A DNA stretch of 64,000 nt from an uncultured Gammaproteobacteria bacterium (GTDB taxonomy: Bacteria; Patescibacteriota; Patescibacteriia; UBA9934), in assembly GCA_964452565.1 (NCBI GenBank), contig CAYVLY010000001.1:291009-355008 (forward strand), read 5' to 3'. The translations under genes were made by a program, and so were the position numbers. The notes beneath the pieces are model-generated. The model saw nothing but the letters and a program-made list of their open reading frames with translations. It was not told where the DNA came from and ran no database searches. This document shows positions 5,353 through 64,000 of this stretch, piece after piece (position 1 is the first letter of the stretch; each line of letters starts with the position of its first letter).

Positions 5353-5437
5353 AACATTGTATCACATGCAGCGCCACACCGTTGACATAACACAAAAATT
5401 CTGCTAAGTTCGTTGAGAACCTTTCACGGAGGGACCT

Positions 5438-6714: not shown

Positions 6715-6718
6715 AAAA

Positions 6719-21347: not shown

Positions 21348-21833
21348 CTCAGTCGTATTGACCACAATCGCATCGCCATAGTCACCAGGGGGCGGATTAA
21401 CCAGGATAATTGGCATGGCTTGTACCTCGTCCCTGCCAATATAGCGACTCTGCGCGTTCGCTACAGCTTGGTCTGATTGATACCCCTTCATAAGATGCAT
21501 ACCCCTAGGTCCGAAATCAATCAGAATGGCTATCAGGGAACCACCTCCGCCAAGCTCCTTACGTCCAGCATGGCGGCATATTTCAATTTCTATCATCTCC
21601 CGCAGACATGCCTGTTTTGGGAGCTTGGGCTTCACCCAAAGCTGCACCTCGAGTCGATAGCCCACATCTACCAAATCTTCAGGAGCAAAGTAATAACCTC
21701 TCAGATTCGTTACCTTATCTTCAAGGTAAATCACAACGTATCTTTCCTGCATTTTGAACCCTTCCTTCTCATTACAGTGGAGATTTAATGTACTAGCCAT
21801 GGCCAATTTTGTCAAAAGCAAAGAGCCCTGCAC
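21297..21833 (-). CDS. hypothetical protein, paralog quartet member B
   Basis: N-terminus identical to C; C-terminus ...PPPGDYGDAIVVNTTEELEAALSKILTDPELG nearly identical to member A. Confidence 0.5.
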   Translation of the reverse strand: MQGSLLLTKLAMASTLNLHCNEKEGFKMQERYVVIYLEDKVTNLRGYYFAPEDLVDVGYRLEVQLWVKPKLPKQACLREMIEIEICRHAGRKELGGGGSLIAILIDFGPRGMHLMKGYQSDQAVANAQSRYIGRDEVQAMPIILVNPPPGDYGDAIVVNTTEELEAALSKILTDPELG

Positions 21834-21934
21834 CTTATTGGCACAGGACCACGAATAGCATGGGCTATGAGACTAGCCAAGTTCTGGATCTGTGAGGATC
21901 TTGCTGAGTGCAGCCTCGAGCTCTTCGGGCGTGT
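21788..21934. repeat. 147-bp direct repeat copy 2
   Basis: Identical to 21201..21347. Confidence 0.85.
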
Positions 21935-22385
21935 TGACCACGATTGCCTCGCCATACTCACCCGGCGGCGGGCAGATGAGGACGATCGGAATCGGTGACA
22001 GGATCAAGTCCAATGGCAGTTGCTGGAGCTGCGCTTCGAAAAACCTACCGGCAAGCCTCATGATGTCCTTGGCTTTTGGATAGCGCCTCAGAGACTCGCC
22101 GGCGCAAACCAGATCACCAAAGACCAGCAATGCCTTATAGCCTCGTCCACTCGCCGACCACTCCCAGATCGCATCGAGTGCGATCAACTGGATAGCGATA
22201 CTGACGGGACAAATAAGCCCATGATATGCGGGGCCTGGACAACCTTCAGGTGACCCAACAACCGCGAAGCTCGGCCCGACTGATCGCCTTAGAGAATAAC
22301 TCAGATCCTCAAGGGCCCGATACATCTCATTACGTCTGCTCCAGATCGAATAGTCGCATACAACATAAACGCTGGGAATCGGCAT
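21873..22385 (-). CDS. hypothetical protein, paralog quartet member A
   Basis: C-terminus ...PPPGEYGEAIVVNTPEELEAALSKILTDPELG shared with B. Confidence 0.5.
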   Translation of the reverse strand: MPIPSVYVVCDYSIWSRRNEMYRALEDLSYSLRRSVGPSFAVVGSPEGCPGPAYHGLICPVSIAIQLIALDAIWEWSASGRGYKALLVFGDLVCAGESLRRYPKAKDIMRLAGRFFEAQLQQLPLDLILSPIPIVLICPPPGEYGEAIVVNTPEELEAALSKILTDPELG

Positions 22386-49770: not shown

Positions 49771-50262
49771 ATGTGAATGAGTTAGTCCCGTGGGGTTTAA
49801 AAAACCACGGCCTTAACGCCGTGAAACAATGAGATCTGATCAAAAGTTCGATCAAATAGCCTCGATAGGACTTACGCTCTTGCAAGCAACCTATTGTCTT
49901 TAGCATTAAGTTGTCAGAAGTATAGAATATTGGCCAAATTATGTCAAGAAGCAGAACGCTCGCCCTTTCGGACGAGCAGTACGTGTACGTGTGGCGCTGA
50001 GGCTACTCAGAGCAGTACTAGCTTTTGATGCCAAACAGCTCAGTGATGATGCCGACAGCCTCTACCTTGGCCCGTTCCAGGTCCCCATGCAGTGTATACT
50101 GCTCCCAGAAAAGCCGCATCAACAAGCAACGCAAGCACATATTTTCATGACCACAAGCCATGTCTCTTTCCTTTCCCTGTGACAAGTAACACTAGAGGTG
50201 GCAATTAAAATAGCACCTATCCCCTTTCTTGTCAATTATCTGAGGTCTAAGTGCTTATCAAT

Positions 50263-50390
50263 CCGACCAAAGGCTTCGACTTTCCTCTTGTCATCCCTGG
50301 CTACGACCAGGGATCCATCGATTATCGAACTCTATAGTTGATGGATTCCCGCTTTTGCGGGAATGACAATAGATCAAAAACTTTGGTCAG
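50263..50390. repeat. Island hairpin repeat, long form (the structured element at 50289..50368 is inserted in the repeat loop)
   Basis: atccgaccaaaggcttcgactttc[ctcttgtcatcc...gaatgaca]atagatcaaaaactttggtcag. Confidence 0.7.
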
Positions 50391-50467
50391 AGCGGCGCGT
50401 TTTCCTTGCGCCGCACGTGACTATTCTCGCGCGGGAGGGAGAATAGTGTCGCTAGGCCTCTTGGGGC

Positions 50468-51652
50468 CTAGAAGAAGACTGTTGGTCCAACCATCTCATC
50501 GTGCGCGATCATATGGTAGTCAACGCCATCATCGGAAACCATGATCGAGTCTTCCGGAACCGTGACAGTCACTCGATCATCACCACTCGCAGCAGTCGCT
50601 CCAGTGCCGTCCACCGAGAACGTGACTCCGAGGATATCTTCGGCATCTACATTGATCGGCGCGTACGAAACGCCATCAAAGCTTGCGGTATGCGTACAGA
50701 TCGTTAGGATGCAAGTATCGCCGGGATAGCACGGGCCATAGCCATCCTCCATACATGCACCGCTTTCTACCGCTGCCTCACCAAGCAAGGCGCCGGAGTC
50801 GGTGTCGTACATGTACACAGAGCTCAGCCCTGCACACCATCCAGTGTCATCGTAGCTCCAGCAATCGACAAACACGGATGTGGGACTGATCTGGAGGTCA
50901 GAGCATTCATGCAGAGTGCTGAAGTTCGTATTGAGCGCATCGACGATTCCGGGAGTGGTTGAGGTATCGATCGTATACACATCGTCGACGACCAGCTCAT
51001 TGCTCATCTCGACCTCGGTCCCATCAGCCAATTCGACATCCCACCGGCAGGTGTTGTCCACATAGTTCATGAAGTCCGGGCTTTCACCGCCGTTGTTGGC
51101 CAGGATCACGACTCTGTCTGCAGTTGAGACGATATCGGATGGATCCAGGATGTCGAATGCGAATCCGACTTCGACACGGATGAACTCTGTGACGTCCTCA
51201 GAGATGTCGCACACCAGGTTGAGTGCTGTGGCGCGACGTCCAACGTTGAACCCACTATCAAGCAACAGGTGCTCATCAAGGATTATCTCAGTTGGCGGCT
51301 CGACAGTGCTGCCAGTCATGGCGTTGGACAGACGACAGCGCTGAACATACTGACTCAGATCAGTGAAGCCACGGTCGACTCCATCCATGCCGTAGTCGAT
51401 CAGTGCCGTTGGGCTCACGCTGAACACGTGGATGGGCCTTGGGTCTCCTGACCCAACCTCTGCTCCACGTTCTTCAACCTGCCGCAAGGTCAATGTACCG
51501 AAGTACACATTCTCCTGACCGGGCTGCACCTCTACCAATCCAGACCCCGGGCCCTCGAACTTGACCTTGAGGATCGAAGCATGCGAGCTGTGTGGCAAGA
51601 GATAGCCCATGAGGGCAACGATGAGAACAAACAGAATATTTGCGAAACGCAT
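50468..51652 (-). CDS. secreted Cys-rich hypothetical protein (island cassette)
   Basis: Signal peptide MRFANILFVLIVALMGYLLPHSSHA; 394 aa with diverse composition. Confidence 0.55.
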   Translation of the reverse strand: MRFANILFVLIVALMGYLLPHSSHASILKVKFEGPGSGLVEVQPGQENVYFGTLTLRQVEERGAEVGSGDPRPIHVFSVSPTALIDYGMDGVDRGFTDLSQYVQRCRLSNAMTGSTVEPPTEIILDEHLLLDSGFNVGRRATALNLVCDISEDVTEFIRVEVGFAFDILDPSDIVSTADRVVILANNGGESPDFMNYVDNTCRWDVELADGTEVEMSNELVVDDVYTIDTSTTPGIVDALNTNFSTLHECSDLQISPTSVFVDCWSYDDTGWCAGLSSVYMYDTDSGALLGEAAVESGACMEDGYGPCYPGDTCILTICTHTASFDGVSYAPINVDAEDILGVTFSVDGTGATAASGDDRVTVTVPEDSIMVSDDGVDYHMIAHDEMVGPTVFF

Positions 51653-52014
51653 AGCGTTTCCTTCCGGCCTTAGCGGCCTTGCATAGTACGGAATGCACTA
51701 CATCGGACGCGATGTCCGATCAAAGAGTTCGATGATAGTTGAAATGTCTAATCGTTCGGCCAAAGGCCTCACTTGTTGAAATTGTTGACGTTGCTTATCG
51801 CACCGTAAACATCTTCAACAACTTAAACAGTTTAAACATTCCTATCAAACACTTAAATCAGACCCCCTGCACTGGAGAGAGACCGGTGCAGGGATTCTGT
51901 AGTACTAGATAATTAGTACGTCCAAAAGACTCGAAATTATTCAAATACTTTGGATGAACCCCCTGCCGACGAAATTCGGCAGGGGCCAGGACTTGGGTTT
52001 CACGGATTTGGAAT

Positions 52015-52054
52015 CCGACCGAAGGGTTCAAGTTTGCTTAAACACTTTGGTCGG
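52015..52054. repeat. Island hairpin repeat CCGACCGAAGGGTTCAAGTTTGCTTAAACACTTTGGTCGG
   Basis: 10-bp stem CCGACCGAAG/CTTTGGTCGG (one G-U pair if RNA); loop carries the T-loop-like GGTTCRA. Confidence 0.75.
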
Positions 52055-52101
52055 ACGATGCGCTCAGATGAACGCACCGTAGAACGGTGTGAGTAGTCGG
52101 C

Positions 52102-52293
52102 CTAGCCGTCTGCGAACACCAGGCACCTGTCCTTGGTGGCGTCGGGGTTGAGGTGCTTCCGCAGCGCGGGATCGAAGGCCACATTCTCGCAACCTTCCGG
52201 GATCTCGTACTCGCCCAGGCTGACACCGGTGCACCCCGTCGCGGAGAAGCATGCGATGAAGGCCAGGGCCAGGCTGATGATGGTCTTACGCAT
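52102..52293 (-). CDS. small lipoprotein, 4 Cys (island cassette)
   Basis: MRKTIISLALAFIACFSATGC lipobox. Confidence 0.5.
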   Translation of the reverse strand: MRKTIISLALAFIACFSATGCTGVSLGEYEIPEGCENVAFDPALRKHLNPDATKDRCLVFADG

Positions 52294-52349
52294 GATGAAC
52301 TCCGTGGAGGCGCGGCAAAGCCGCTAGGGTTGAAGGTATCACTCTCGAA

Positions 52350-52389
52350 CCGACCGAAGGGTTCGAATTACTTCAAACACTTTGGTTGA
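52350..52389. repeat. Island hairpin repeat (ccgaccgaagggttcgaattacttcaaacactttggttg)
   Basis: Same family. Confidence 0.75.
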
Positions 52390-52454
52390 CCCCCTGCCGC
52401 GTATGTTGGCAGGGGCGCTCACGCGAGTCGCGTGGCGTCGTAGTAGTTGTGGGC

Positions 52455-52886
52455 CTACCAGCCCTGGAGCTGCTTGATCGTGAGAGCGGTTTCCTGTGCG
52501 CACACCAGATGAGGGTGCGTGATGAACGAAGCGGTACTCTGGTCCATGATCCTCATGAGCGCCGCCAGCAGATCGCACGGCCTGCCACCGAAGTGCAGAC
52601 CCACAGGACTCACGGCAGCCAGGAACATGCCCAGCAGCCACACCTCGCCGTCAGCGGTGCTGGCACTGTAGGTGATGGTCCAGGAACGTGGATCGTCCAG
52701 GTGTCTCACCACCCGGAGGCGTGATTCACCGGAACCTAGGTACGTCCTCCGGTCACTGGATCCTGACCAGGTGTCCCGCCCCATCAGCTCGCTGAGCCTG
52801 GCGATGTCTTTGGACAACACCACCGTGCTTATCTCGATCTGGCGGGCAAGGAATCCCCCGAAGAGCCTCTCAAAGATACCGAACAT
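52455..52886 (-). CDS. hypothetical cytoplasmic protein (island cassette); start at MFGIFERLFGG
   Basis: ORF between two repeat copies; ORF-track start 52931. Confidence 0.45.
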   Translation of the reverse strand: MFGIFERLFGGFLARQIEISTVVLSKDIARLSELMGRDTWSGSSDRRTYLGSGESRLRVVRHLDDPRSWTITYSASTADGEVWLLGMFLAAVSPVGLHFGGRPCDLLAALMRIMDQSTASFITHPHLVCAQETALTIKQLQGW

Positions 52887-52942
52887 GGCATCTCCTCTCA
52901 CCTGGCTCTGGGGCCAGGGCTCTGGTTTCACGGATTTGGAAT

Positions 52943-52982
52943 CCGACCGAAGGGTTCGATATTCATCAAACGCTTTGGTCGG
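52943..52982. repeat. Island hairpin repeat (ccgaccgaagggttcgatattcatcaaacgctttggtcgg)
   Basis: Same family. Confidence 0.75.
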
Positions 52983-53197
52983 TCCCGCCCAGACATTATG
53001 CGGGAGACGAAGAAAAGGGACTACAGGCCAAGCAATCTACAGATACACTCGACGATGACCAACCCAACCAGTATACCAAGGCCCAGGCAAACCAGATCTC
53101 TGTAGAAATTGGTACGGGTGCGACTATCAAACAAAGATACCTACTTCCACCTGGCGTCAACCAGGAGTTATGGGGTTTCAAGAATGGACACAGCGGC

Positions 53198-53374
53198 CTA
53201 CTTGGGCTTCCATTCTCCAGGACAGACACCCTGACGCTCGTACAAGGTGATTGCAGTGCTGCAGTACTCCGCCAACTCCTCCTTATTCATCATGATCGGA
53301 GGCTTGGGAAGGTACCACAACGCAAACACCGCCAGCGCCAACAGCGCACATCCAGCCAGCAGTTCTCTCGACAT
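53198..53374 (-). CDS. small secreted protein of about 58 aa (island cassette; below the ORF-track size cutoff)
   Basis: Manual translation MSRELLAGCALLALAVFALWYLPKPPIMMNKEELAEYCSTAITLYERQGVCPGEWKPK. Confidence 0.4.
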   Translation of the reverse strand: MSRELLAGCALLALAVFALWYLPKPPIMMNKEELAEYCSTAITLYERQGVCPGEWKPK

Positions 53375-53448
53375 TCCAACTCTCTTTCACCTAGTAAAAA
53401 CCGGGGTCAGAGGTGAGGGTTCGGATTTGCGATCCTATTTGACGCATA

Positions 53449-53488
53449 CCGACCAAAGGCTTCGAATTGTTTCAAAAACTTTGGTCAG
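53449..53488. repeat. Island hairpin repeat (ccgaccaaaggcttcgaattgtttcaaaaactttggtcag), followed by a shared roughly 45-nt module gtaggtgaggcttgtcgtcaattcgacactacctc
   Basis: Same family; the extra module is also present after the 54067 copy. Confidence 0.7.
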
Positions 53489-53541
53489 ACCCCCCGCCCA
53501 GACATTATGCGGGGGACGTAAGACGTAGGTGAGGCTTGTCG

Positions 53542-54012
53542 TCAATTCGACACTACCTCGAGGGTGGGATCTTCGGATTCGTGTTCTTCTCCATGGCGTG
53601 GCATGATCGCCATACCCAGGAGAATCCACGCGATCCACGGGAAGAGCCACTCGAACGGCCAGAGCACCCAATCCGCCAGGAACTGACGAAAAGGAGTCCG
53701 ACTCGGACAGCCCTGAGTGAACCACTCGATGGCGAAGAACCGAGGTTCCGTATCCCGATTCATCTTGCCCTGATAGTGAGAATCAGCCCATCCGCATTGC
53801 CACCACACACCACCACGATCACGTTCTAGGCGGCAGCTGGCGTAGCGGTCGTAACCAAGCATGAGCGAGGTTATGGTAGCTGCGTTCTTCTCGCCATCAC
53901 CATCGATGTCGAGGATAGTCCTATCCACACAGCCAACTGCACACGACCCAAGGGACAATCCAAGGGCGATGAAGAAAGCTACATTGAAGATGATTCCTCT
54001 GAGTCGCTCCAT
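53542..54012 (-). CDS. lipoprotein with a C-terminal TM helix (island cassette); start at MERLRG
   Basis: MERLRGIIFNVAFFIALGLSLGSC lipobox; Trp-rich C-terminal helix. Confidence 0.5.
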   Translation of the reverse strand: MERLRGIIFNVAFFIALGLSLGSCAVGCVDRTILDIDGDGEKNAATITSLMLGYDRYASCRLERDRGGVWWQCGWADSHYQGKMNRDTEPRFFAIEWFTQGCPSRTPFRQFLADWVLWPFEWLFPWIAWILLGMAIMPRHGEEHESEDPTLEVVSN

Positions 54013-54066
54013 AGCAACTCCTTCCACCAGATTTCTCTGGGTTGAAGATTGGAGTTCGGATTGGAT

Positions 54067-54107
54067 CCGACCGGAGACTTTGAAATACTTTCAAAATCTT
54101 TGGTCAG
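54067..54107. repeat. Island hairpin repeat (ccgaccggagactttgaaatactttcaaaatctttggtcag)
   Basis: Same family, diverged loop. Confidence 0.7.
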
Positions 54108-54175
54108 ACCCCCCACCCGAAAACAATGTGGGGGTCAAAGACGTGGGTGAGGCTTGTCGTCAATTCGACACTACC

Positions 54176-54643
54176 TCAGGGGCTGGTGCTGGTCCTGCAC
54201 TGCATCGAATAGACGATGAAGGTGAACAGCGCTGATACCAAGACGCAGACCTGGCAGGTCCTGCCCAGGAAAGTCTCAAACGGCATCGTGCTTGGAACGT
54301 AGATCACGAGGCCAGGGTAGATGGCTACCACCAAGCACGTGAAGATGCCAAGTGCCATCACAGTAGTGTACATGGCGCAGAACATACACATCACGTTGCT
54401 GGTGAAGGACTTGCGTACGCCATCCACGAACAGCAAGCCTGTTCCGAGAAGGCAAAGCACGACGCCAACAAGGAACGATACGAAGTACACGAGATACATC
54501 GGTATATCTTCCACCTGGCTGTAGCCAGGAGTTAAGGGTTCAAGCTCGGATTCATGATCCGACCAAGAACCTCGAGAGAGTTCAAGATTCTTGGTCGGCG
54601 GCGGCCTGTCGAGAGTATCGACTTCCGCCTTGTACGTACTCAT
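54176..54643 (-). CDS. 4-TM membrane protein (island cassette)
   Basis: Four hydrophobic helices; Cys-rich. Confidence 0.5.
   Translation of the reverse strand: MSTYKAEVDTLDRPPPTKNLELSRGSWSDHESELEPLTPGYSQVEDIPMYLVYFVSFLVGVVLCLLGTGLLFVDGVRKSFTSNVMCMFCAMYTTVMALGIFTCLVVAIYPGLVIYVPSTMPFETFLGRTCQVCVLVSALFTFIVYSMQCRTSTSP
54559..54598. repeat. Island hairpin repeat, diverged copy lying inside the 5' end of the 54176..54643 ORF (ccgaccaagaacctcgagagagttcaagattcttggtcgg)
   Basis: Same stem; loop variant. Confidence 0.5.
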
Positions 54644-54649
54644 ACGTAG

Positions 54650-54757
54650 TCAACAGCCCTGCAGGAAAAGCAAGGGGAAAATCATGGCGACTATCACCAC
54701 GCCCATCATAATCAGTGCCCAGCTCACCTCATCCATTCCACTTTTTTGGGAGTCCAT
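54650..54757 (-). CDS. putative 35-aa membrane peptide (island)
   Basis: Manual translation MDSQKSGMDEVSWALIMMGVVIVAMIFPLLFLQGC. Confidence 0.25.
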   Translation of the reverse strand: MDSQKSGMDEVSWALIMMGVVIVAMIFPLLFLQGC

Positions 54758-54828
54758 AGGACTCCTTTCCCCGGCTTATTGCCGGATGCGTCTCTAGGAC
54801 GCCTTCTGAATTGACTCTTTTACTATAA

Positions 54829-54869
54829 CCAACCGAAGGGTTCGATTATTCATCAAACACTTTGGTCGG
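54829..54869. repeat. Island hairpin repeat (ccaaccgaagggttcgattattcatcaaacactttggtcgg)
   Basis: Same family. Confidence 0.75.
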
Positions 54870-54915
54870 ACGATGCACCCGGGTGGTGCATCGTACGGGA
54901 CGAGGGGGTTGTTGG

Positions 54916-55362
54916 CTACCAGTGCATGAAGTCGTGGATGCTCTGGGCCCCTGTGCGAACGTGTGTGAACAGCTGCAGGAGATCGCCATTCTCACAGCGC
55001 ATCCAGCCCGAGATCAAGCTCCTGAGCCTGGACATACGCTGACTAGACATATTCGTGGGCTTGGTGTCTCCCAGGGCGTTGAGCAGCACGGGCAGCACGG
55101 GCGCTTCATATACAGTCGGCTGGCCCCACAGGAAGTACTCTAGCTTCCAGGTGCCATCGGGCTGCTGCTTGGCCTCGAGGAACTCGAATCCCTGCGGCCA
55201 CGCGAACCTGAGCGCCTCCTGGCCGTCTTCCTGCTCAGACTCGATGGTCATGCGGCGCTTGGCGCTCTCATGGGCTCGGGCCATGGCCTCAGCCGAGACG
55301 GTCGCCTCCACTTGAACTGACCGACTCTTCCGCTTCGCGCTTGGACGAGTAATCACACTCAT
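54916..55362 (-). CDS. hypothetical protein (island cassette)
   Basis: ORF between repeat copies. Confidence 0.45.
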   Translation of the reverse strand: MSVITRPSAKRKSRSVQVEATVSAEAMARAHESAKRRMTIESEQEDGQEALRFAWPQGFEFLEAKQQPDGTWKLEYFLWGQPTVYEAPVLPVLLNALGDTKPTNMSSQRMSRLRSLISGWMRCENGDLLQLFTHVRTGAQSIHDFMHW

Positions 55363-55413
55363 CTCCTCTCACCTGGCTCTGGGGCCAGGACTCTGGTTGA
55401 ACGGATTTAGAAT

Positions 55414-55537
55414 CCGACCGAAGGGTTCAACTTTCTCTTGTCATCCCAGCCGTAGAGCCGGGATCCATCGTTTATCGAACTCGATAGTTGATGGATTCCT
55501 GCCTACGCAGGAATGACATATTAAACACTTTGGTCGG
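55414..55537. repeat. Island hairpin repeat, long form (the structured element at 55439..55518 is inserted at the same loop position as in 50263..50390)
   Basis: ccgaccgaagggttcaactttct[cttgtcatccc...ggaatgaca]tattaaacactttggtcgg. Confidence 0.75.
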
Positions 55538-55582
55538 ACGATGCACCCGGGTGGTGCATCGTACGGGAACGGGGAGTTGGGG

Positions 55583-55906
55583 CTACCGCTGGGCCTTGGC
55601 GTGGGCCTTGCGGTCGGCGCCCTGGCGCGGCTGCTGGCCGGACTTGCCGGGCTGGCGATCGGGGCTCTGGGCCTTGCGACCCTTGGGCTGGTTGCCCTGC
55701 CTCGGCGCCTGTGCCCTGGTCTTCGGCTCGGGCTTCTGCACCTCAACCTCCACCTCGACCCGGTCCGTGATGGACTCGGGCTCGGTGAGCTGGTCGACGA
55801 TGCCGTAGACCACGAGGCCGGTGATCGAGGTGATGCCGAGGCCGATGGCCAGCAGGATGCCAGCCACGATGGCTATGGCAGATGCGGTTCTCTGGTTCCT
55901 GGTCAT
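55583..55906 (-). CDS. small membrane-anchored protein with a basic Gln/Pro/Lys-rich tail (island cassette)
   Basis: TM helix AIAIVAGILLAIGLGITSITGLVVYGIV. Confidence 0.45.
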   Translation of the reverse strand: MTRNQRTASAIAIVAGILLAIGLGITSITGLVVYGIVDQLTEPESITDRVEVEVEVQKPEPKTRAQAPRQGNQPKGRKAQSPDRQPGKSGQQPRQGADRKAHAKAQR

Positions 55907-56043
55907 TTGAGTTCCTTTCTCTTGACCGGGTTGTACTCGCTCGAGAATCTCGATACTGGATCAAGAGTCTTGAGCGAGCGGCACATTCGATGCACCACAC
56001 GGAAGTTGGTTGTGAAGAAGGGACGGAGGAGGTTGATGTGGGG

Positions 56044-56823
56044 CTAGTCGATGAAGAACAAACGCTGACCCGGGGTGGGCAGGCCATCCACGGTGAGGCC
56101 ATCGAGGAGCTGGCCCTCTGCGGTCTCCCAGTGGAACTCGGCCGGCCAGCTGATGCTGGTGACCGTGTCGTCCTGGCAGTCCTCGGAGGTACAGGGGCTC
56201 GGAGCCGCCTCATAGGCCATGCGGAACCACTTGGTCTCACCGGCCACGAGCTCCACATCGATCTCGGCAACTGCCTGCTCGACGTCCAGGTTGGGACCGT
56301 AGCTGCAGTCCACCCACTCGGCCTCATCGTCGTCGATGGTGTAGAAGTCCCAGTTGGCTTCCAGCGTCATCCACTGGTCGTAGCCGTCCTGGTCCTCACC
56401 CATGTACTCGTAGAAGCCGAAGTAGAGGGAATCGCCCTGGTTGGAGCAGGAGTTCCAGTCCGTGTAGCCATAGTCCGTGGTGCCCATGCGGAACGGCACC
56501 TGGGTGAGGTAGGCATCCACGTTGGCAGTGAGGCTGAACTCGATGACCGGGACCCTGTGGCCCAGTGCGAAGTACTCGCCCTCGACCTCGATGTAGTCGA
56601 GCTCGATGCGAGGCGAGACCTCCTCTTCTTCGACACCCTCTGTCTCCTGGCTCTCCTCTTCACTGCTGCCGATGTCGTCGACGTCCTCGTCGTACTCGTA
56701 GACGTTGGCATCGTTGTCCTCGATCTGTTCTTCCTGGCTCTCGACTTCCGGGCACTCGCAGGGAGCGCCGCAGGCGATGGAGAGGAACAGGGGGGCGAGG
56801 ACGGAGGGGGTGGAAAAACGCAT
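56044..56823 (-). CDS. acidic lipoprotein (island cassette); start at MRFSTPSV
   Basis: MRFSTPSVLAPLFLSIACGAPC lipobox; long Glu/Asp-rich linker; aromatic-rich C-terminal domain. Confidence 0.5.
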   Translation of the reverse strand: MRFSTPSVLAPLFLSIACGAPCECPEVESQEEQIEDNDANVYEYDEDVDDIGSSEEESQETEGVEEEEVSPRIELDYIEVEGEYFALGHRVPVIEFSLTANVDAYLTQVPFRMGTTDYGYTDWNSCSNQGDSLYFGFYEYMGEDQDGYDQWMTLEANWDFYTIDDDEAEWVDCSYGPNLDVEQAVAEIDVELVAGETKWFRMAYEAAPSPCTSEDCQDDTVTSISWPAEFHWETAEGQLLDGLTVDGLPTPGQRLFFID

Positions 56824-56887
56824 TACGCGCTCCTTCTTGCTTGGGAAATGCGGATGAGCCGCTTGGGAAAGGTAGTTTCTATCGTAT

Positions 56888-56927
56888 CCGACCGAAGGGT
56901 TCAAGTTTACTTAAACGCTTTGGTCGG
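56888..56927. repeat. Island hairpin repeat (ccgaccgaagggttcaagtttacttaaacgctttggtcgg)
   Basis: Same family. Confidence 0.75.
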
Positions 56928-56972
56928 GCGGCACATCAGAGACGTACCGCGTAGACGAAGGGGGTTGAAGGT

Positions 56973-57131
56973 TCACTGTACCCTCTCGAACCGGGTGGTC
57001 GAGTGGGTGATGTCGTTCACGACTGCATCGATCGCTGCACTTGCCCTGCTCACGCCCTTGAGGGCGCAGATCAGAAGCACCGCGATGAATGCAAGACGGA
57101 AAAATGGAACTTCGACGATATTTTCGAACAT
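56973..57131 (-). CDS. putative 52-aa membrane peptide (island)
   Basis: Manual translation MFENIVEVPFFRLAFIAVLLICALKGVSRASAAIDAVVNDITHSTTRFERVQ. Confidence 0.3.
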   Translation of the reverse strand: MFENIVEVPFFRLAFIAVLLICALKGVSRASAAIDAVVNDITHSTTRFERVQ

Positions 57132-57265
57132 GGGACTCTCCGGTTGGTGGGTTGTTCTCTTCCCAGACCTTTACAAAGTTCTTGAACTAATGTTCCAGGT
57201 CTTTGCTAAGGTGCGGCGCGTCGATCAGATCAACGCGCCGCAACGAGGATGAAGGGACGGTATCG

Positions 57266-57727
57266 CTACAGCCCCATCTCCTTCAGCTCCCGCTGGTACT
57301 CGCGGCACTGGCGACGCTGGGCCTTCTTCTCGAAGTCGCGACAGCTGAGCTGCGCGAGCTCCGTAGTCCAGGCGCTGAGCTCCTCCTCGAGGGTGGGTTC
57401 GGGCTGGGCCAGGGTCTCGGGGCCGATGCTGTCGGTGCGGTACACGCCGACGGCCTCGATCTCCTTGGCCAGCTGCGCATCCTTCCAGGCCTGCCAGGCC
57501 TGGATCTCGGCGGCCGTGGGGCCCTCCTCCTTCTGCACCTCGACCTCGACGGTCTCGGCGGGCAGGAAGTCGGAGAGGGTGGCCAGCGGGGCTTCGACCA
57601 GCTCGGGCGCTGCCTCGGCCTTGCCACCGTGCACCAGGTGCATGACACCCAGACCGGCGGTGAAGCCGATGGTGAGCAGGACGAGCAGGGCGGCGAGCAG
57701 GGCGGCGGCGATGGCGATATACTTCAT
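57266..57727 (-). CDS. secreted hypothetical protein (first island cassette at the right border)
   Basis: Signal peptide MKYIAIAAALLAALLVLLTIGFTAG; alternative overlapping minus-frame ORFs are Arg/Pro-rich GC artefacts. Confidence 0.5.
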   Translation of the reverse strand: MKYIAIAAALLAALLVLLTIGFTAGLGVMHLVHGGKAEAAPELVEAPLATLSDFLPAETVEVEVQKEEGPTAAEIQAWQAWKDAQLAKEIEAVGVYRTDSIGPETLAQPEPTLEEELSAWTTELAQLSCRDFEKKAQRRQCREYQRELKEMGL

Positions 57728-57961
57728 GATGTACTCCAGGATTCTCGAATTGGGGTTGGGGACTTGGTAGACGAGATCTGAACACTTTTTATATTCAGGT
57801 CTCGTCTACCAAATGTAGCTTGTTAAAGAAAACCGGCTATCTTTCTTGATTTAAGAGAGATAACCGGTTTTCCACCACAGATCACCATATAACAGGATCA
57901 CTGTGATAATGCTTCTTAACCCAGAAGCTGGGGCTCTCTCTGATTGTGAAGTTCCTTGATC

Positions 57962-58050
57962 TTTACATGTAGTACTATAGCACAAAATCGACCTTTTGTC
58001 AAGGCCTAAGGCCGGATTTTAGGCTAATTTTAGTCTATTTTAAAAGGCTG
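57962..58050. repeat. AT-rich conserved motif actatagcacaaaatcgaccttttgtcaagg... at the right edge of the GC-rich island (paralogous copy at 63822..63900)
   Basis: About 27/31 identical core with the copy at the window end, plus shared ttttagGCTAattttag blocks. Confidence 0.55.
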
Positions 58051-58088
58051 CCAAATGACAGCCAATCATCAATTTTTCATCAAAATCA

Positions 58089-58799
58089 CTAGCTCAAAAC
58101 GGTCCCCTTAAACCCCTTATTTTGAACTAATTTCCCTATATTCCCAAAATCTTTACCATTAACAATAGCCACCTGCATCTTATCACGCTGACAAAGCCTT
58201 GAAGCCACTGGATCAAATGGTGCAGATTTGCCTGGATGCCAGTCATCTCCCACCATTTTTCGATAATCGCCCCAAGAAAGCTCATCTAAAGGCTTTGCCT
58301 TTGGATTCTTGCGTGGATCCTCAGTATATACATAATCAATATCTGAAGCATTGATCACGCTTTTAACCCCCAATCTCTTTGCCATTCGGCACGCGACATA
58401 GTCTGTGCTCCACCCAGGCTTCCAGCCAGCTCCGATCAGCACTTTACCCTTCCACCTCTTTGGCAACCTGGTCGGATCCTTGATGACCACTGGGTGTGCC
58501 ACTTCTCGAAAAATAGTTCGAAGCAAGTGTGCATTAAGCCGTGTTCCATGAATACCAAGCCAGTCAAGGTCCTCTGCTTCTATTGATTTTCGAACTCCGC
58601 GTGCTGCATCAATATAGTGCCTAGCAGTCTTCCCTCCTCCTGTCACAATCAACAGCTTTCGACTCTTCTTAACCTGCGAATCTACAAATCTCTTTAACTT
58701 TTTTAAAAACTCAACATCTGGTCCTCCATTAGGAACTATCAGCGATCCACCAACCGAAATTATGATTGGTTTGTTGTTTTGGAGTGTGAGTTTGGGCAT
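58089..58799 (-). CDS. pyrH: UMP kinase (amino-acid kinase family)
   Basis: ...IIISVGGSLIV... and ...LLIVTGGGKTARHYIDAAR...; start at MPKLTLQ. The ORF-track start at 58898 would read through the repeat element. Confidence 0.75.
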   Translation of the reverse strand: MPKLTLQNNKPIIISVGGSLIVPNGGPDVEFLKKLKRFVDSQVKKSRKLLIVTGGGKTARHYIDAARGVRKSIEAEDLDWLGIHGTRLNAHLLRTIFREVAHPVVIKDPTRLPKRWKGKVLIGAGWKPGWSTDYVACRMAKRLGVKSVINASDIDYVYTEDPRKNPKAKPLDELSWGDYRKMVGDDWHPGKSAPFDPVASRLCQRDKMQVAIVNGKDFGNIGKLVQNKGFKGTVLS

Positions 58800-58810
58800 A
58801 TTCACTTTCT

Positions 58811-58893
58811 TATCATCCCGGCCATAGAGCCGGGATCCATCGTCATACCAAATTCGATAGTTGATGGACCCCCGATTGGGGTCGGGGTGACAG
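58811..58893. repeat. Structured multi-hairpin element, TGTCATCC...GAATGACA family, copy C, immediately upstream of pyrH
   Basis: tatcatcccggccatagagccgggatccatcg...cgatagttgatgga...ggggtgaca. Confidence 0.65.
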
Positions 58894-58906
58894 AGCAACG
58901 AGCCAA

Positions 58907-59266
58907 TCAGGCTCGCTTTTTTGGTTTAATTGTTTTCAACAGGTAATTCGTGATTACAGATACTGCCCAGAGCACCACTGCTGCAGCCAGGGCCGTCCAG
59001 AATCCTTCGATCTCCACACCTTTCACCATTGTTCCCATCAGCAAAATCATTAAAGCATTTATCACAAACGTGAACAATCCAAGCGTCAGAATATTAACTG
59101 GCAAAGTTAGTATCAAAAGCACTGGTCGTATTATCGCGTTGATCAACCCAAGTATCAAAGCGGCGATCAAGGCATGATAGAACGTATCTACACTAAAACC
59201 TACGAGTAACTCTGTTACAAGTAGTAATGCTAAGGCATTGATAAGCCATCGAAGTAGTAGTTTCAT
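58907..59266 (-). CDS. 4-TM small membrane protein (DUF360 / phage-holin-4-like)
   Basis: MKLLLRWLINALALLLVTELLVGFSVD... pattern typical of that family. Confidence 0.45.
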   Translation of the reverse strand: MKLLLRWLINALALLLVTELLVGFSVDTFYHALIAALILGLINAIIRPVLLILTLPVNILTLGLFTFVINALMILLMGTMVKGVEIEGFWTALAAAVVLWAVSVITNYLLKTIKPKKRA

Positions 59267-59269
59267 AAG

Positions 59270-59731
59270 CTAAGCAAGAAAATAATATGGTTGATAATAT
59301 TGAATAAGCATCCACAACAAAGCACTTTCCACTCCCAGTGCAACAAGAGTTTCAAACCATGCAGTCTTCTCTTCTTTCCAGCCCATAAATCCAAAGCCAA
59401 CCAATGGGAAGATTACTAGGTTCAAAAACAACCAGAACAAAGCTGCCACAATAATCATCGACAGTATCGAATACGGTGAATGCGTGATGATCAACCAATC
59501 CTGTTTTACAAATAAAACATAAATCGCTCCATAGGCAGCGCTGGTAATCAAATGAATCAAAAGCCCTACAACAAAAACCTCCCTTTCGTTTAGCTTATAA
59601 CCACGCCAGATATGAACATCTAAAAGTAATGGCAGGTTTTTAACTCGGTGAGAAGTCTCTAAAATAATCGCTGGAAGCGCGATTAAAAAACCAACTAAAG
59701 TTCCAAGTGTAGCTGCTAGTAGGTAGTCCAT
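59270..59731 (-). CDS. hypothetical membrane protein (4 TM)
   Basis: Hydrophobic ORF. Confidence 0.45.
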   Translation of the reverse strand: MDYLLAATLGTLVGFLIALPAIILETSHRVKNLPLLLDVHIWRGYKLNEREVFVVGLLIHLITSAAYGAIYVLFVKQDWLIITHSPYSILSMIIVAALFWLFLNLVIFPLVGFGFMGWKEEKTAWFETLVALGVESALLWMLIQYYQPYYFLA

Positions 59732-59733
59732 AT

Positions 59734-60594
59734 TTATCTAATTGGCTCAACGAAAATAACTACTTTTGCCCCGTTTGCAGGATTGCCATTATTCCAGTCT
59801 CCCATTGCGTTCATTATAACATCAATTTCATACACATACCCTTGTCCATTGCGAGTTCCGGGATCATTGGTAATCCACATGTCATCTGTATACCCACGCA
59901 AGACCAGCATGTGATAAAGCGGCCCTTGTCCTGTAAAATTCGGATTTCCCAACTCACGTCCTGCTGCGGGAACTACGACTGGATACCCTGCTGCGATCTG
60001 ATCTTTAATCTGATCAACTGTTGGGTATTCAACAACATAGGCATCAAGCCCGTAAAATCCCTCGATAAAATCAACTGTTTCTTGTGCAGTAGTATCTAGA
60101 TAATCTCCCAATGTTTTATTTTGATAATCTATGACCTCTAACAAGGCTATATCTGCGACTTCAGCATCAACCAAGCCAGATGCATAACCTTCAAAGTAAA
60201 GCCAAACCATGTAAGCTGAGGCCTCCTCGCAAGCTTCCTGATATGGCAAATCCCAATTCGCATGTGGAGCCTGAGGAGTAAAAGGCACTGCCAGGTTGAT
60301 CTGATCTGGAGTTAGATCCTCAGATTCGATCGAATCCTCGATCATCTCGACGTTAGGAGGGATCTCGGACGACTCTTGGTCGTCCGGCGTCTCAGCCTCA
60401 GCAGATCCTTCGACTCGTCCTTCGGACTCGCTCAGGATGACGGCTTCTGGAACGCTACTATCCCCTGCCGTAACCTCCTCAAAACTAACCTCCTCAACTT
60501 CAACTACTGGTTGCTTATCAAAATCAAGAACAATAAAAGCGCCAACCACCAAAAAGATGATTATAAAAACTCCGACTAAAAGTCTATTACGCAT
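59734..60594 (-). CDS. membrane-anchored C39-like cysteine peptidase domain protein (Peptidase_C39_2-like)
   Basis: N-terminal TM; ...VPFTPQAPHANWDLPYQEACEEASAYMV... resembles the C39_2 catalytic Gln/Cys region. Confidence 0.45.
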   Translation of the reverse strand: MRNRLLVGVFIIIFLVVGAFIVLDFDKQPVVEVEEVSFEEVTAGDSSVPEAVILSESEGRVEGSAEAETPDDQESSEIPPNVEMIEDSIESEDLTPDQINLAVPFTPQAPHANWDLPYQEACEEASAYMVWLYFEGYASGLVDAEVADIALLEVIDYQNKTLGDYLDTTAQETVDFIEGFYGLDAYVVEYPTVDQIKDQIAAGYPVVVPAAGRELGNPNFTGQGPLYHMLVLRGYTDDMWITNDPGTRNGQGYVYEIDVIMNAMGDWNNGNPANGAKVVIFVEPIR

Positions 60595-60944
60595 ACGCCA
60601 GTATCTTCAATATATTCATCACAATGATGGTCATGTGGGCACTCTCCATCATGTGTGCAATAACAATACTCAGTGCAGAGCTCCATACATGCGGTGTCAG
60701 GATCTATAGCCTCGTTTTCCCGACAAGCTGATCCGCACGGCTCCCACTCACCACCTGAGTCATCACACATGGCTTCAGTTAGGCTCTCACTTTGATCAAT
60801 GAACTCTTGGAATTCTTGCGGCCCCTCTTGATTCATCTGATCAATCTTTTGAACAATGCCAAGTACAATAGCAACAAACAACACAGCCAAGACTAATGTC
60901 ATTCGCCAAGGCTTGTATTCGATCTCTTTTCGAAGGTATTTCAT
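60576..60944 (-). CDS. small membrane-anchored Cys-rich protein
   Basis: TM helix, then 13 Cys in about 60 aa. Confidence 0.4.
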   Translation of the reverse strand: MKYLRKEIEYKPWRMTLVLAVLFVAIVLGIVQKIDQMNQEGPQEFQEFIDQSESLTEAMCDDSGGEWEPCGSACRENEAIDPDTACMELCTEYCYCTHDGECPHDHHCDEYIEDTGVCVIDF

Positions 60945-60945
60945 A

Positions 60946-62328
60946 TTATTGTTCGCGTGCCCACTTGATCATATGCCAAGTTGCAAGCACGTCATCTTCA
61001 TTATAATCCATTATCTTTTGTAATTCTGCTCTATCCTCTGAAGCCTGATAGTCATGGAACCATAAAACAGAATTAAGTCCAGATGCATCAGCAGTACGCC
61101 ACTCAAATCCTAAGTGCTTTGCAATGTCTTTGAGGGAATAAAACGGAAGCGGGAATATAACCGACTCCCGGAAAGCTGGCAGAATATCAAACATCTTATT
61201 TGTTAGCTGCTCACGAACTGAATCAGGTGCCTCAAACTCATCCATCATCCTTCGAAATACATCAGTTTCATACCATCCATAGTGATAGATCGGTGATTCT
61301 GGATATTTTTGAACAAAGCTTATAAAGTCATGCCACATCCCTTCTACTTCTGATTCATCTTTTGCAAAAAAACTATGATATGTCTCTTCGCCATCTGCAA
61401 TTTTTAAAACTCCGATTAGATAATGCAAATCTCGCAACGGGTCACTTTCGATATCAATAACAAGTTCAACGTCTTGAGGTTCTGGAAGTTCGACTGGATG
61501 TAATTTAATCACCCTTTCCTCTTTCATGGCCTTAGCTTGCTGCTGTAAAAAGTGAAGTCGATCTGACGTTAGGCCTGAGACTGATGAGATCTGCTGATCG
61601 CTTGCCATTGCTAGAGTTGATAAAGTCGAAAGTCCAGCCTCTTTTAGTGAGTCTGCCTCGCTTCTCCATAAACGATTCAAAAGTGATAGATTGTCACATC
61701 CACGTGCTTGAGCTTCGCATTCTGAAAAGTATGGTGATTGTTTACAGGCAGATGTAAGAAACACTGGCGGCTCATGGCCTTCAAGAATATTCTCAATCTG
61801 ATCAAGCGTTAGTCGAAAGTCTGCCAAAATATCATCAATCAAATAACCCTCAATCTCACCGTTCGTGTGGAGCACATATCCTTGAACTGGACGAATGCCC
61901 TGGATCCTTTCAAGGATCTCAGCATAAAACGCACCCTGGAATCTATACTCATCTTTCAGATGCGATGATCGCTTAACATCGCATGCCACATAGTACCAGC
62001 CTCCCAATTCTGACTTGCCCTCAACGCGTTCAAGAATATCAGGCCGTCCAACCCAGTGGCCGTGGATTAGCGCGCCGCGATAGATAGTCTGAATCCCCTG
62101 TCCCATGAGCTCAAGTGTGCGCTGAGCTGCCTCATCTACATCATCAAAATCAACTTCTACATAATCACGATCCTTTAGAAGCTCAAGTTCACGTTCGCGC
62201 AAAAGCCCCTCATCCTGAAGTTTACGCATTAAAGGCTCGCGAACATCCTCACCATCACGAAGCTCATGCATTATCCAATGCGGGCATTTGAGATACTTAT
62301 AAAATGTTTGTTCAGTGATCTTATTCAT
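60946..62328 (-). CDS. RecB-family (PD-(D/E)XK) nuclease, TM0106-like, with a C-terminal RNase-H-like domain
   Basis: N-terminal YKYLKCPHW...; ...YYVACDVKRSSHLKDEY...; C-terminal ...LVIDIESDP... DEDD-like block. Confidence 0.5.
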   Translation of the reverse strand: MNKITEQTFYKYLKCPHWIMHELRDGEDVREPLMRKLQDEGLLRERELELLKDRDYVEVDFDDVDEAAQRTLELMGQGIQTIYRGALIHGHWVGRPDILERVEGKSELGGWYYVACDVKRSSHLKDEYRFQGAFYAEILERIQGIRPVQGYVLHTNGEIEGYLIDDILADFRLTLDQIENILEGHEPPVFLTSACKQSPYFSECEAQARGCDNLSLLNRLWRSEADSLKEAGLSTLSTLAMASDQQISSVSGLTSDRLHFLQQQAKAMKEERVIKLHPVELPEPQDVELVIDIESDPLRDLHYLIGVLKIADGEETYHSFFAKDESEVEGMWHDFISFVQKYPESPIYHYGWYETDVFRRMMDEFEAPDSVREQLTNKMFDILPAFRESVIFPLPFYSLKDIAKHLGFEWRTADASGLNSVLWFHDYQASEDRAELQKIMDYNEDDVLATWHMIKWAREQ

Positions 62329-62426
62329 ACATGCTGATAGTATAGCAAAATTGATGGAATTAAGGGGGAAGCATGAAGCCCGCGACCAGATGGATCGCGG
62401 ACTGACGGATGAGACGAACGGTTGAG

Positions 62427-63026
62427 CTAGAAGCTCAGGGCGAACACGCCACGCATGGCGTGCAAGTAGTCATCGCCCTCGAAGTCCATGTAGTACTGAA
62501 GTTCGAGGTGGAACGGACCCTGTGTGAAGCCGATGTGCGGGCCGTAGTCGATGTCGGAGTTGACCTGCTCAGCCTGGGCCCCGAAGTTCATGCATGGCTG
62601 TTCGGAGTTGTAGTCAGCGGCATAGTAGCCGTAGACCACTTGACCAGCGTCACCCTCTCCAGCCACGAAATCACCCTCGAGGAACAGGCTCAATGACTCG
62701 TACCCGAGCACCATCCACAGCGAGCCGCCAAAGGCATCTGCCTCCTCGAACCAGTCGAGGAACACTGCAGCCTGGGGGGAGATCCAGAGGCTCACATCAC
62801 CGAGCTGAGCAGTGAACGTCGGCCCCACATAGATGACCGTGGGCGAGAACTGAGCCTTCGGGATGTCGAACAGGTGCAGACTTGCACGCGCCCCAGAACC
62901 GTCTACCGTGGGCAACTCACCACCGATGATGGCAACCGCCTGCGTGCCAGTCCAAGTCCCGGCGCGAGCGGCAGTTGGAAGGCCCAGAATGGACAGGAAG
63001 AGGATCAAAACGATCGGATTCCGCAT
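62427..63026 (-). CDS. secreted hypothetical protein in a second GC-rich segment
   Basis: Strong RBS aaggaggtg 8 nt before ATG; signal peptide MRNPIVLILFLSILGLPTAARA; roughly 60% GC. Confidence 0.5.
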   Translation of the reverse strand: MRNPIVLILFLSILGLPTAARAGTWTGTQAVAIIGGELPTVDGSGARASLHLFDIPKAQFSPTVIYVGPTFTAQLGDVSLWISPQAAVFLDWFEEADAFGGSLWMVLGYESLSLFLEGDFVAGEGDAGQVVYGYYAADYNSEQPCMNFGAQAEQVNSDIDYGPHIGFTQGPFHLELQYYMDFEGDDYLHAMRGVFALSF

Positions 63027-63151
63027 GACAAACACCTCCTTGTTGGGGTCAGTACGGATAAGGAACTTAGCATGGATCAACACCTTGGTCAATCATGCAT
63101 TCACCGAATTCTGACAAAAATCCCCTCATCTCTTTTTGATCTTTTCTATAC

Positions 63152-63189
63152 AAAAAAAGCACCCCCGCAACGAGATGCTGGCGGGGGGC
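63152..63189 (-). terminator. rho-independent terminator on the minus strand (gccccccgc...gcgggggtgc hairpin plus T-run)
   Basis: Plus strand reads caaaaaaagcacccccgcaacgagatgctggcggggggc. Confidence 0.55.
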
Positions 63190-63821
63190 AAGATGTTGTG
63201 GCGCCCCCGGCCGATCGGCGCTTGATGGCCGTATGCGGGGGTGCCCTCGTATTTCGCTGCTAGGGATTGGGAAAGCCCATGATTACAGCTAGTACTCAGT
63301 GCCGACGAATCAGCACTGGAGAGTGAGGGGTCCAACGGTCGAACCCAGCGACTCACTCCACGTATTTAATCGGTTTAGAGAACTTATACCATCCCTCCTT
63401 CTTGTCTCGAATCTTGGTATAAGTCGGTCCATTATGACCTATATTACGTTCCCTTCTCCCTCTAACGTTCGATTCGTCGGGAGCGCGCGGCCGCGATGGG
63501 CCAATTCCGCATTTCAGGTGCCTTTCGATATCTACTCGGCTGTCTGCAGGTTGGGATCTCCGGATTGGCATCCGAAGTCCTGCATCCTTATTTCCACCGC
63601 GGACCCGGTGGAACCTGTGTCATCTTTCACTCATTACAGCCCTATGTTTTTGGGACCAACCTTTTGGGGTTGATTAACGATGACTCTCAACTGCGTGCTA
63701 GTAGCTACGCAGCCTGGGCCGGGCCTGGGTGACGCCGCGCGGGCTACCACTCTTGGGGTCACACTCAGTAACCGCCTGGTAACCGGCCGCGTCGACGTTG
63801 AACGCCTCGGCACTTCAGGAC

Positions 63822-63900
63822 TGAAACTATAACACAAAATCGAACTCTTGTCAAGTGCTTGCTTGACTTTTTAAACTAAAATTAGCCTATTTTTAGCCTT
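63822..63900. repeat. Second copy of the AT-rich conserved motif (actataacacaaaatcgaactcttgtcaagtg...) at the right edge of the second GC-rich segment
   Basis: See 57962..58050. Confidence 0.55.
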
Positions 63901-64000
63901 AACTACCAACGTGTAACGTTGGTAGTTTTACAAAAAATCAGCCGCCTCTCAGCGTCTGATTTTCGTTTTATCTTGTTTTTAAAGGCTATTCTGTGCTCTC

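Follow-up and report, generated by a model that had tools for sequence, protein, structure and literature searches.

A repeated AT-rich motif beside two GC-rich segments of a Candidatus Uhrbacteria genome reads as a strong sigma-70-type promoter module

Why should the same AT-rich motif stand at the same edge of two GC-rich blocks of DNA? The window, the 64-kb stretch of DNA that was analysed, contains two segments that stand out in a composition profile, at about 50.2-57.8 kb (GC 0.50-0.68) and at 62.2-63.8 kb (0.51-0.61), in surroundings of about 0.39-0.47. This bears out an earlier note on this DNA, which had described both segments and placed a conserved motif at the right edge of each. 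The note offered an attachment site, an attI-like site or a promoter/operator driving the island as explanations. Our analysis points to the last of these. We give a probability of about 0.8 to the reading of both motif copies as minus-strand promoter modules, strong and of the sigma-70 type.

The motif core (CTTGACAARAGKTCGATTTTGTGYTATAGT on the minus strand) was found at 57974-58003 and 63826-63855 and nowhere else in the 64-kb window, with up to 3 mismatches allowed. The two cores are identical at 27 of 30 positions, and a repeat finder gives them as a pair at 90% identity. The 30-nt degenerate core pattern had no match in 100 dinucleotide shuffles, and 0 matches are expected by chance, so the repetition of the core at two places is confirmed. 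The blocks that the earlier note reported beside the core ('ttttagGCTAattttag' and GCTAattttag) are confirmed as well. They are 18-nt near-palindromes, TAGGCTAATTTTAGTCTA at 58020-58037 and TAAACTAAAATTAGCCTA at 63872-63889, which lie in identical register in both copies, and the block has 3 matches against 0.15 expected. Since both blocks are nearly palindromic, that of one copy is 94% identical to the reverse complement of the other. The elements of the two copies are as follows.

58003-57974, minus strand: core of copy 1, reading CTTGACAAAAGGTCGATTTTGTGCTATAGT
57974-58003, minus strand: promoter of copy 1, with -35 TTGACA at 58002-57997, a 17-nt spacer, TGTGc and -10 TATAGT at 57979-57974
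58020-58037, no strand assigned: upstream near-palindrome of copy 1, core CTAATTTTAG at 58024-58033
63855-63826, minus strand: core of copy 2, reading CTTGACAAGAGTTCGATTTTGTGTTATAGT
63826-63855, minus strand: promoter of copy 2, with -35 TTGACA at 63854-63849, a 17-nt spacer, TGTGt and -10 TATAGT at 63831-63826
63872-63889, no strand assigned: upstream near-palindrome of copy 2, core CTAAAATTAG at 63876-63885

On the minus strand, both cores have the form cTTGACA-17 nt-TGTGnTATAGT and point into GC-rich DNA. Ten promoters of this type from six genomes were aligned: the two window copies, four from the relative L005 and one each from L127, L132, L139 and L140. They align without gaps from -62 to +22, with TTGACA, an A, TTTgTG and TA...T invariant and with TAA..TTAG and AAAT at fixed upstream positions. 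The -35 hexamer TTGACA matches the consensus at 6/6 positions in both copies and is invariant across the ten family promoters. The -10 hexamer TATAGT matches TATAAT at 5/6 in both copies after a 17-bp spacer, and TGTGn, an extended -10 element, stands directly upstream of it; TTTgTG is kept in the family. Between 49 and 64 kb, the two copies are the only sequences that match 11/12 hexamer positions and carry the TG. The -35 and -10 elements that the note proposed to look for within the motif are present in both copies, and these copies have the two top sigma-70 scores in the 64 kb, above the promoters of the L10 operon (49947) and of tRNA-Gln (33535). All ORFs downstream of both copies and the closing terminators lie on the minus strand, the same as the promoters. 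Each immediate transcript is closed by a terminator, at 63179-63158 for copy 2 and at the hairpin 57873-57827 for copy 1. The consensus -35 and extended -10, the agreement in strand, the register of the ten promoters and the closing terminators support the suggestion that the motif is a promoter/operator driving the island.

The module would consist of a consensus -35, a 17-bp spacer, the extended -10 TGTGnTATAGT and an upstream element at a fixed distance. RNA polymerase would start about 7 nt beyond the -10, near 57967 in copy 1 and near 63819 in copy 2, and run leftward into the GC-rich DNA. Both promoters are predicted to be active and strong. Sigma-70 extended -10 promoters with an UP element or a class I site likewise have TTGACA, a 17-bp spacer, a TG set one base ahead of a TATAAT-like hexamer, and A/T-rich DNA upstream; the dyad is centered here about 61.5 bp upstream of the predicted start. 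The differences are the dyad sequence (cTAAnnTTAG / TTAGCC) and the host, Candidatus Uhrbacteria (Patescibacteria), in which activity and start site are predictions. Our verdict is that the motif is a promoter/operator module, and as such a commonplace type of element, although its surroundings are uncommon. It would mark the right edge of each segment simply by being the 5' limit of that segment's transcription, and its AT-rich block would be conspicuous because an AT-rich promoter contrasts with GC-rich DNA. The claim that the motif marks the segment edges holds for copy 2, which directly adjoins its GC-rich segment. It fails in part for copy 1, which is not flush but about 190 nt outside the island, with an AT-rich conserved leader between the promoter and the GC-rich boundary near 57790.

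A separate repeat occurs elsewhere in the window. Two direct copies of 216 nt, at 21201-21416 and 21777-21992 (91% identity, 576-nt spacing), lie across the points where tandem ORFs meet, in a region of slightly higher GC (20-22.4 kb). These ORFs have only their first ~20 codons in common, and the repeat contains a promoter-like TTGACA-17-TACATT.

A RecB-like protein is encoded in the DNA between the two copies, and relatives were ranked by its identity, which is 88% in L005, 87% in L127, 76% in L132-135, 72% in L140, 69% in L139 and 60% in L138. Five related Uhrbacteria contig sets (L005, L127, L132, L139 and L140) have the same promoter, each time downstream of the AA_kinase gene. In L005, L127, L132 and L139 it is followed by GC-rich DNA with the same hairpin family and different cassette sets; the L140 contig ends within the leader, and the array comparison covers the other relatives only. 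At the position of copy 2, L005 has three tandem units, in each of which the upstream block and the promoter are followed by a GC-rich body that is closed by a terminator. These units and the window unit have only the 5'-terminal ~85 nt and the 3'-terminal ~100 nt in common. L138 keeps the synteny (isomerase, RecB-like, ..., AA_kinase, L10, L12) and has intergenic regions of 134 nt and 186 nt at the two sites, without the motif and without GC-rich DNA. Since the relatives whose contigs reach far enough have both and L138 has neither, the motif and the GC-rich DNA are present or absent together.

The neighborhood of these sites holds other elements in some relatives. In L139, an IS with an rve transposase (6394-7302) also lies at the AA_kinase-to-L10 intergenic site. 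L127 has a bAvd-family gene within the operon (5292-5648), and L138 has a reverse transcriptase and bAvd pair a few kb upstream (588-1688) that is diversity-generating-retroelement-like. Logan short-read contigs from this organism break exactly at the repeated promoter (end of L001, window ~57960) and in the hairpin array (start of L004, window ~52025). Such breaks mean that the repeats fragment assemblies and could hide arrays of this kind from binned genomes.

If the motif is a promoter, it must be asked how much of the likeness between the copies belongs to this locus and how much to strong promoters in general. The pattern CTTGACAARAGN6TTTGTGNTA matches at least 120 metagenome contigs from many environments, mostly unrelated; the motif has 0 matches in GTDB species genomes. 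Among the core matches listed, the downstream-minus-upstream GC difference has a median of +0.03 and reaches at least +0.10 in 12/104, and the attC-like hairpin family was absent from the listed metagenome contigs with the core. The two copies are not a unique signature of foreign DNA. Many copies across the genome with no GC-rich neighbor had been named as grounds against a link to foreign blocks. In the metagenome contigs, the core proved generic and free of GC association; the window pair additionally shares the upstream block.

Much of the 27/30 identity is generic promoter consensus, so the residual similarity is modest but real. The two window copies agree at 5 of the 6 free spacer positions, and at least this much agreement is seen in 1.9% of pairs among the 123 unrelated occurrences listed (P = 0.019). 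The worry that the similarity would dissolve under proper statistics was justified for much of the identity, which is generic consensus, and unjustified for the residual similarity, which has a P of ~0.02. With the core generic, a special tie between the copies rests on the upstream block, the register and the 5/6 spacer positions (P ~0.02). TTAGCC/GGCTAA occurs upstream in 11/123 of the generic matches listed versus 0/111 control windows, and by this enrichment the upstream element seems a wider lineage feature. At metagenome loci L007-L126, an inverted repeat flanks the -35 in many strong promoters that are unrelated and read CTTGACAAAAG-N6-TTTGTGnTATAAT, for example CACAAAAGCC-CTTGACAAGAG-GGCTTTTTTGTG.

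These numbers raise the possibility that the two copies are independent strong promoters that converged on a lineage consensus, with no common descent, regulator or link to GC content. We consider this rather doubtful. The wide occurrence of the core on at least 120 contigs without GC association agrees with convergence, as does the tRNA-Gln promoter, which is likewise headed by TTGACAAAA; the 11/123 versus 0/111 enrichment also suggests a lineage-wide rather than a locus-specific element. Convergence does not predict that cTAAnnTTAG would keep the same 21-nt register in 9/10 family promoters or that the copies would share 5/6 free spacer positions. It also sits poorly with spacers that covary within genomes, where TCGA is found in both window copies and TCAG in the L005 island promoter and unit 2, and with both modules being missing together from L138. 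The two copies are probably members of one promoter family, related by descent or by a shared factor.

The upstream element could itself be the functional part. In both copies, cTAAnnTTAG ends exactly 21 nt upstream of the -35, with its center near -61.5, and copy 2 has an additional overlapping half-site at 63883-63900. The palindrome, together with an A-tract near -50, could provide an UP-like contact or a site for a dimeric regulator; a dimeric regulator may bind the palindrome near -61.5, or the palindrome and the A-tract may act as an UP-like element. Class I activator sites, for instance those of CRP in E. coli, have their center at this position. We know of no nameable regulator site that matches the dyad cTAAnnTTAG / TTAGCC. 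A stronger version of this idea holds that the palindrome and the inverted repeats around the -35 form an operator that co-regulates or silences the GC-rich units, with the hexamers incidental. The fixed position of the palindrome near -61.5 in 9/10 promoters speaks for it, and inverted repeats (AAATCAGCC...GGCTGATTT) surround the -35 in copy 1, L139 and L132. Such -35-flanking repeats are enriched, with at least 8/10 complementary positions in 8% of the generic matches listed versus 0.5% in a control of shuffled partners. This version is nevertheless unlikely, since the palindrome tolerates changes among the ten promoters while the hexamers are invariant, a similar upstream element precedes ordinary protein-coding genes in other contigs, and no candidate regulator was identified.

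With the promoter module as the preferred reading, the two copies can be followed into the DNA that they face. Copy 1 lies between the end of an upstream operon and a structured leader.

58045-58064, minus strand: terminator-like hairpin ggctgtcatttggcagcc followed by tttt, the end of the upstream AA_kinase operon as read from sequence
57827-57873, minus strand: terminator-like hairpin (16+4 bp) followed by UUUUCUUU, at the 3' end of the ~150-nt conserved leader from copy 1
57762-57814, minus strand: second near-perfect leader hairpin, just ahead of where the GC-rich DNA begins and of the first cassette ORF (57727-57266)
50260-57790, minus strand: GC-rich cassette array of minus-strand ORFs, with ~13 attC-like hairpins as separators
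56930-56885, 55980-55934, 55540-55411, 54872-54826, 54598-54557, 54109-54065 and 53491-53446, minus strand: attC-like hairpins 1-7
52985-52940, 52392-52347, 52057-52012, 51960-51915, 51863-51714 and 50393-50260, minus strand: attC-like hairpins 8-13

The AT-rich leader of copy 1 contains two strong hairpins and folds with z = -7.5. The hairpin at 57873-57827 shows compensatory changes at 10/26 pairs across 4 genomes and is preserved in L005, L127 and L140. It is therefore a conserved terminator or attenuator, and since it lies between copy 1 and the cassettes, expression of the array from copy 1 is conditional at best. Copy 1 would produce a conserved, structured leader of ~150 nt that ends at the intrinsic-terminator-like hairpin, and read-through past this hairpin would express an integron-like array of largely promoterless ORF-plus-hairpin cassettes. 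Copy 1 would then take the role of an integron Pc promoter with an added control point. We infer that it feeds the array only via this read-through.

The leader RNA (57968-57762, minus strand) has further structure near GAGAGCCCCAGCTTCTGGGTTAAGAAGC, where two small hairpins, CCCAG/CTGGG and GCTTC/GAAGC, overlap. Both are kept in L140 through altered bases. The leader RNA looks like a switch or a small RNA, and it has no counterpart in L132 and L139.

The array behind the leader is 7.5 kb long, and the description of the island as cassette-like was accurate: it is an ORF-plus-hairpin array with ~13 attC-like sites. Each cassette has one largely promoterless ORF and one site, all in one orientation. 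The cassette ORFs have GC3 values of 0.60-0.93 versus 0.36-0.45 in flanking genes, and the GC1/GC2/GC3 pattern supports their coding status. No Pfam family was found for them, and a homologue search with the 394-aa cassette protein returned 0 homologues. Despite this foreign-like codon usage, cassette genes occupy the same locus in species down to 69% identity. In the relatives, array sites were located at 12.8-16.4 kb in L005, 8.7-10.9 kb in L127, 7464-7921 in L132 and ~5990-6030 in L139. The L132 version is minimal and consists of the promoter, ~40 nt, a hairpin site, a lipoprotein ORF, a second hairpin site, a small ORF, a terminator and the L10 promoter.

Each attC-like hairpin begins with an outer box, continues with CAAAG and nTTTGA, has a loop that measures 6-7 or 90-103 nt, and returns through TCGAAcc and CTTCG to an outer box complementary to the first. 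Between sites and between genomes, these two boxes covary (CCGAC:GTCGG, TCGCT:AGCGA, TCAAC:GTTGA, TCGTT:AACGG and TCACT:AGTGG). As single-stranded DNA, the sites form three stacked helices with two 1x1 mismatches, and the more stable fold is that of the strand complementary to the ORFs, the bottom strand. Paired R/L-type boxes, unpaired spacers and a variable terminal structure are present as a matter of architecture. The outer boxes (YCRAC/GTYGR) deviate from RYYYAAC/GTTRRRY, and the likeness to attC is judged by architecture. The hairpin family is restricted to the island, with 0 occurrences elsewhere in the 64 kb, and the attC-like site had 0 matches in viral contigs.

Several smaller features were observed in and around the array. 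One cassette recurs in L005, where it takes another place in the array (66% identity across 452 nt). An ~85-nt element occurs at 58808-58877, 55432-55518 and 50282-50368 of the window and at ~15390-15460 of L005. It folds into three hairpins closed by GTCAT/ATGAC, a four-way junction, with covariation in the outer hairpins and a conserved central arm, TCCATCAACTATCGAnTTCGATAAACGATGGA. The element lies inside the loops of long attC-like sites and also alone between the holin-like and AA_kinase genes, and it has no Rfam match. The 9-mer (A/T)TGTTTAA(A/G) forms short tandem repeats in the long loop of one attC-like site (~51790-51835, minus strand) and is also found just after the last RNA unit in L005 (5136-5165).

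An array of this kind invites the other two readings of the motif, in which it is a recombination site, serving an integrated element as its att site or cassettes as an attI-like point of insertion. The island is truly an array of ORF-plus-hairpin cassettes, and the cassettes vary between relatives behind a conserved promoter and leader. In L132, an attC-like hairpin begins ~40 nt past the -10, and the plus-strand sequence ATCGAAC-TCTT-GTCAAG loosely resembles the L'-spacer-R' half of the array hairpins, with the spacing off by 2 nt. We nevertheless judge recombination at the motif to be highly improbable. An attachment site was not borne out, because the motif stands at one edge only, with no copy at 50.2 or 62.3 kb. 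Direct att repeats at both insert ends are absent in the 64 kb, where each segment has a single, right-edge copy and the far edges have none. An att site left intact in an empty relative is not what L138 shows; the empty sites there have no motif copy, which speaks against an attachment site. No integrase (Pfam Phage_integrase) was found among window ORFs of at least 230 aa, the neighbors of either copy or the flanks of L001, L005 and L127. The attI-like reading fared no better. The hairpins are a different sequence family from the motif, the conserved motif positions are exactly the promoter hexamers, and the loose half-site is on the opposite strand, the wrong one for the attI of a leftward array. 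The nearest attC-like hairpin lies between 40 nt (L132) and ~1 kb (window) downstream of the promoter, and attC-like sites are entirely missing from the second GC-rich segment, the one downstream of copy 2. If the motif is a promoter, the AT-rich block at one edge of each segment is explained and an attachment site is not needed.

The promoter module of copy 2 faces a different kind of unit.

63932-63963, minus strand: intrinsic-terminator-like hairpin with a T-run, the end of the upstream peptidyl-prolyl isomerase gene (identified through L001)
63901-63929: 9-bp perfect hairpin after the isomerase terminator
63150-63819, minus strand: GC-rich (57%) non-coding RNA unit of ~660 nt from copy 2, with a terminator at 63179-63158 and a T-run
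62427-63092, minus strand: 199-aa secreted-protein gene (62427-63026) with its promoter, TTGACC-17-TAAGTT at 63092-63064

Copy 2 would direct a structured, GC-rich non-coding RNA of ~660 nt that stops at its own terminator. The unit folds better than shuffled sequences on the sense strand (z = -3.95; antisense z = -1.43) and has no long ORF and no codon-position GC periodicity. Decayed coding genes were rejected as the origin of the RNA bodies because this periodicity is absent. Structured RNAs in AT-rich genomes are often GC-rich, as are the RNA bodies here. A focused Rfam search with the unit at E <= 10 gave chance-level matches only, and Rfam 15 has no family for the leader, the RNA units or the hairpins (window at gathering threshold; 50000-64000 and L001, L005 and L006 at E <= 1). 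The unit had no match in phage and plasmid collections, and the RNA 3' module had 0 matches in viral contigs.

The RNA-unit family (window 63150-63819; L005 3286-5135) shares the promoter, the 5' end GTCCTGAAG and a ~100-nt 3' module. The bodies of ~250-750 nt are GC-rich and unrelated to one another. In the 3' module, CCCCCGC occurs twice upstream of GCGGGGG, so alternative pairings are possible.

The remainder of the second GC-rich segment is the 199-aa gene, which has its own promoter and is not driven by the motif. Gene and promoter are conserved in L127 and L139, and a word-index search of 5.8 billion proteins found one homologue of the protein (L127, 49% identity). The protein has a signal peptide, and its C-terminus (...GVFALSF) is reminiscent of outer-membrane beta-barrel proteins. 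An outer-membrane-type C-terminus would be odd for a Patescibacteria cell. The L139 copy of the gene is broken by a stop codon.

The arrangement at copy 1 was compared with known systems. In integrons, the Pc promoter lies upstream of the cassette array (Cury et al. 2016, PMC4889954). Here, too, a single promoter heads same-orientation ORFs that are each followed by an imperfect hairpin site, and the cassettes are ORFan and variable in content between relatives. Unlike in integrons, the promoter is neither in nor beside an intI gene, and no attI was identified. The conserved leader, with its terminator-like hairpin, also separates promoter and cassettes, and at least one downstream unit has its own promoter. 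Clusters of attC sites without an integron-integrase are known as CALIN (PMC4889954), and the array, with no nearby integrase, matches this category. CALIN have at least 2 attC sites (here ~13 attC-like sites), no nearby integrase and cassettes without homologues. The likeness extends to an R-like box, a spacer, an L-like box, a variable loop (6-7 or 90-103 nt) and a bottom strand that folds more stably. The outer boxes differ, however (YCRAC/GTYGR, not RYYYAAC/GTTRRRY), the sites were matched by architecture, and the cassettes have a GC3 of 0.60-0.93 versus 0.36-0.45 in the genome's own genes. REP/BIME palindromes are also short imperfect palindromes between genes of one transcription unit. 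In contrast to these, the palindromes here are confined to the island (0 elsewhere in 64 kb), occur once per ORF in a single orientation and travel with variable cassettes between genomes. Our literature search found no report of integrons or attC sites in CPR, Patescibacteria or Uhrbacteria, or of CPR promoter motifs. In the literature searched, we likewise found no description of this cassette array, of the leader RNA, of RNA units whose ends are conserved, or of the 85-nt junction element.

A broader reading, which we offer tentatively and regard as the less likely outcome, is that Uhrbacteria, and possibly other Patescibacteria, have a cassette system of their own, for which the promoter module provides an unchanging platform of expression. 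An ultra-small genome would then capture and express DNA with an unknown recombinase, both as an integron-like array and as tandem 'RNA cassettes'. The array part would comprise non-canonical attC-like hairpins (GTYGR boxes; 46-nt and ~130-nt forms, the latter with a four-way-junction loop) and GC-rich ORFan secreted proteins. In the 'RNA cassette' part, the promoter, 5' end and 3' terminator module would be conserved around structured GC-rich bodies that are unrelated to one another.

The motif itself is ordinary, and what is unusual is the pair of blocks that it would drive, an integron-like cassette array and an unclassified structured RNA. It serves as a handle that anchors a variable cassette array with foreign codon usage and an unclassified family of GC-rich RNAs, and several Candidatus Uhrbacteria genomes have both at the same chromosomal positions. 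Should the array prove active in recombination, integron-like capture of genes would reach into the Candidate Phyla Radiation, and an unidentified recombinase and site consensus would be implied.
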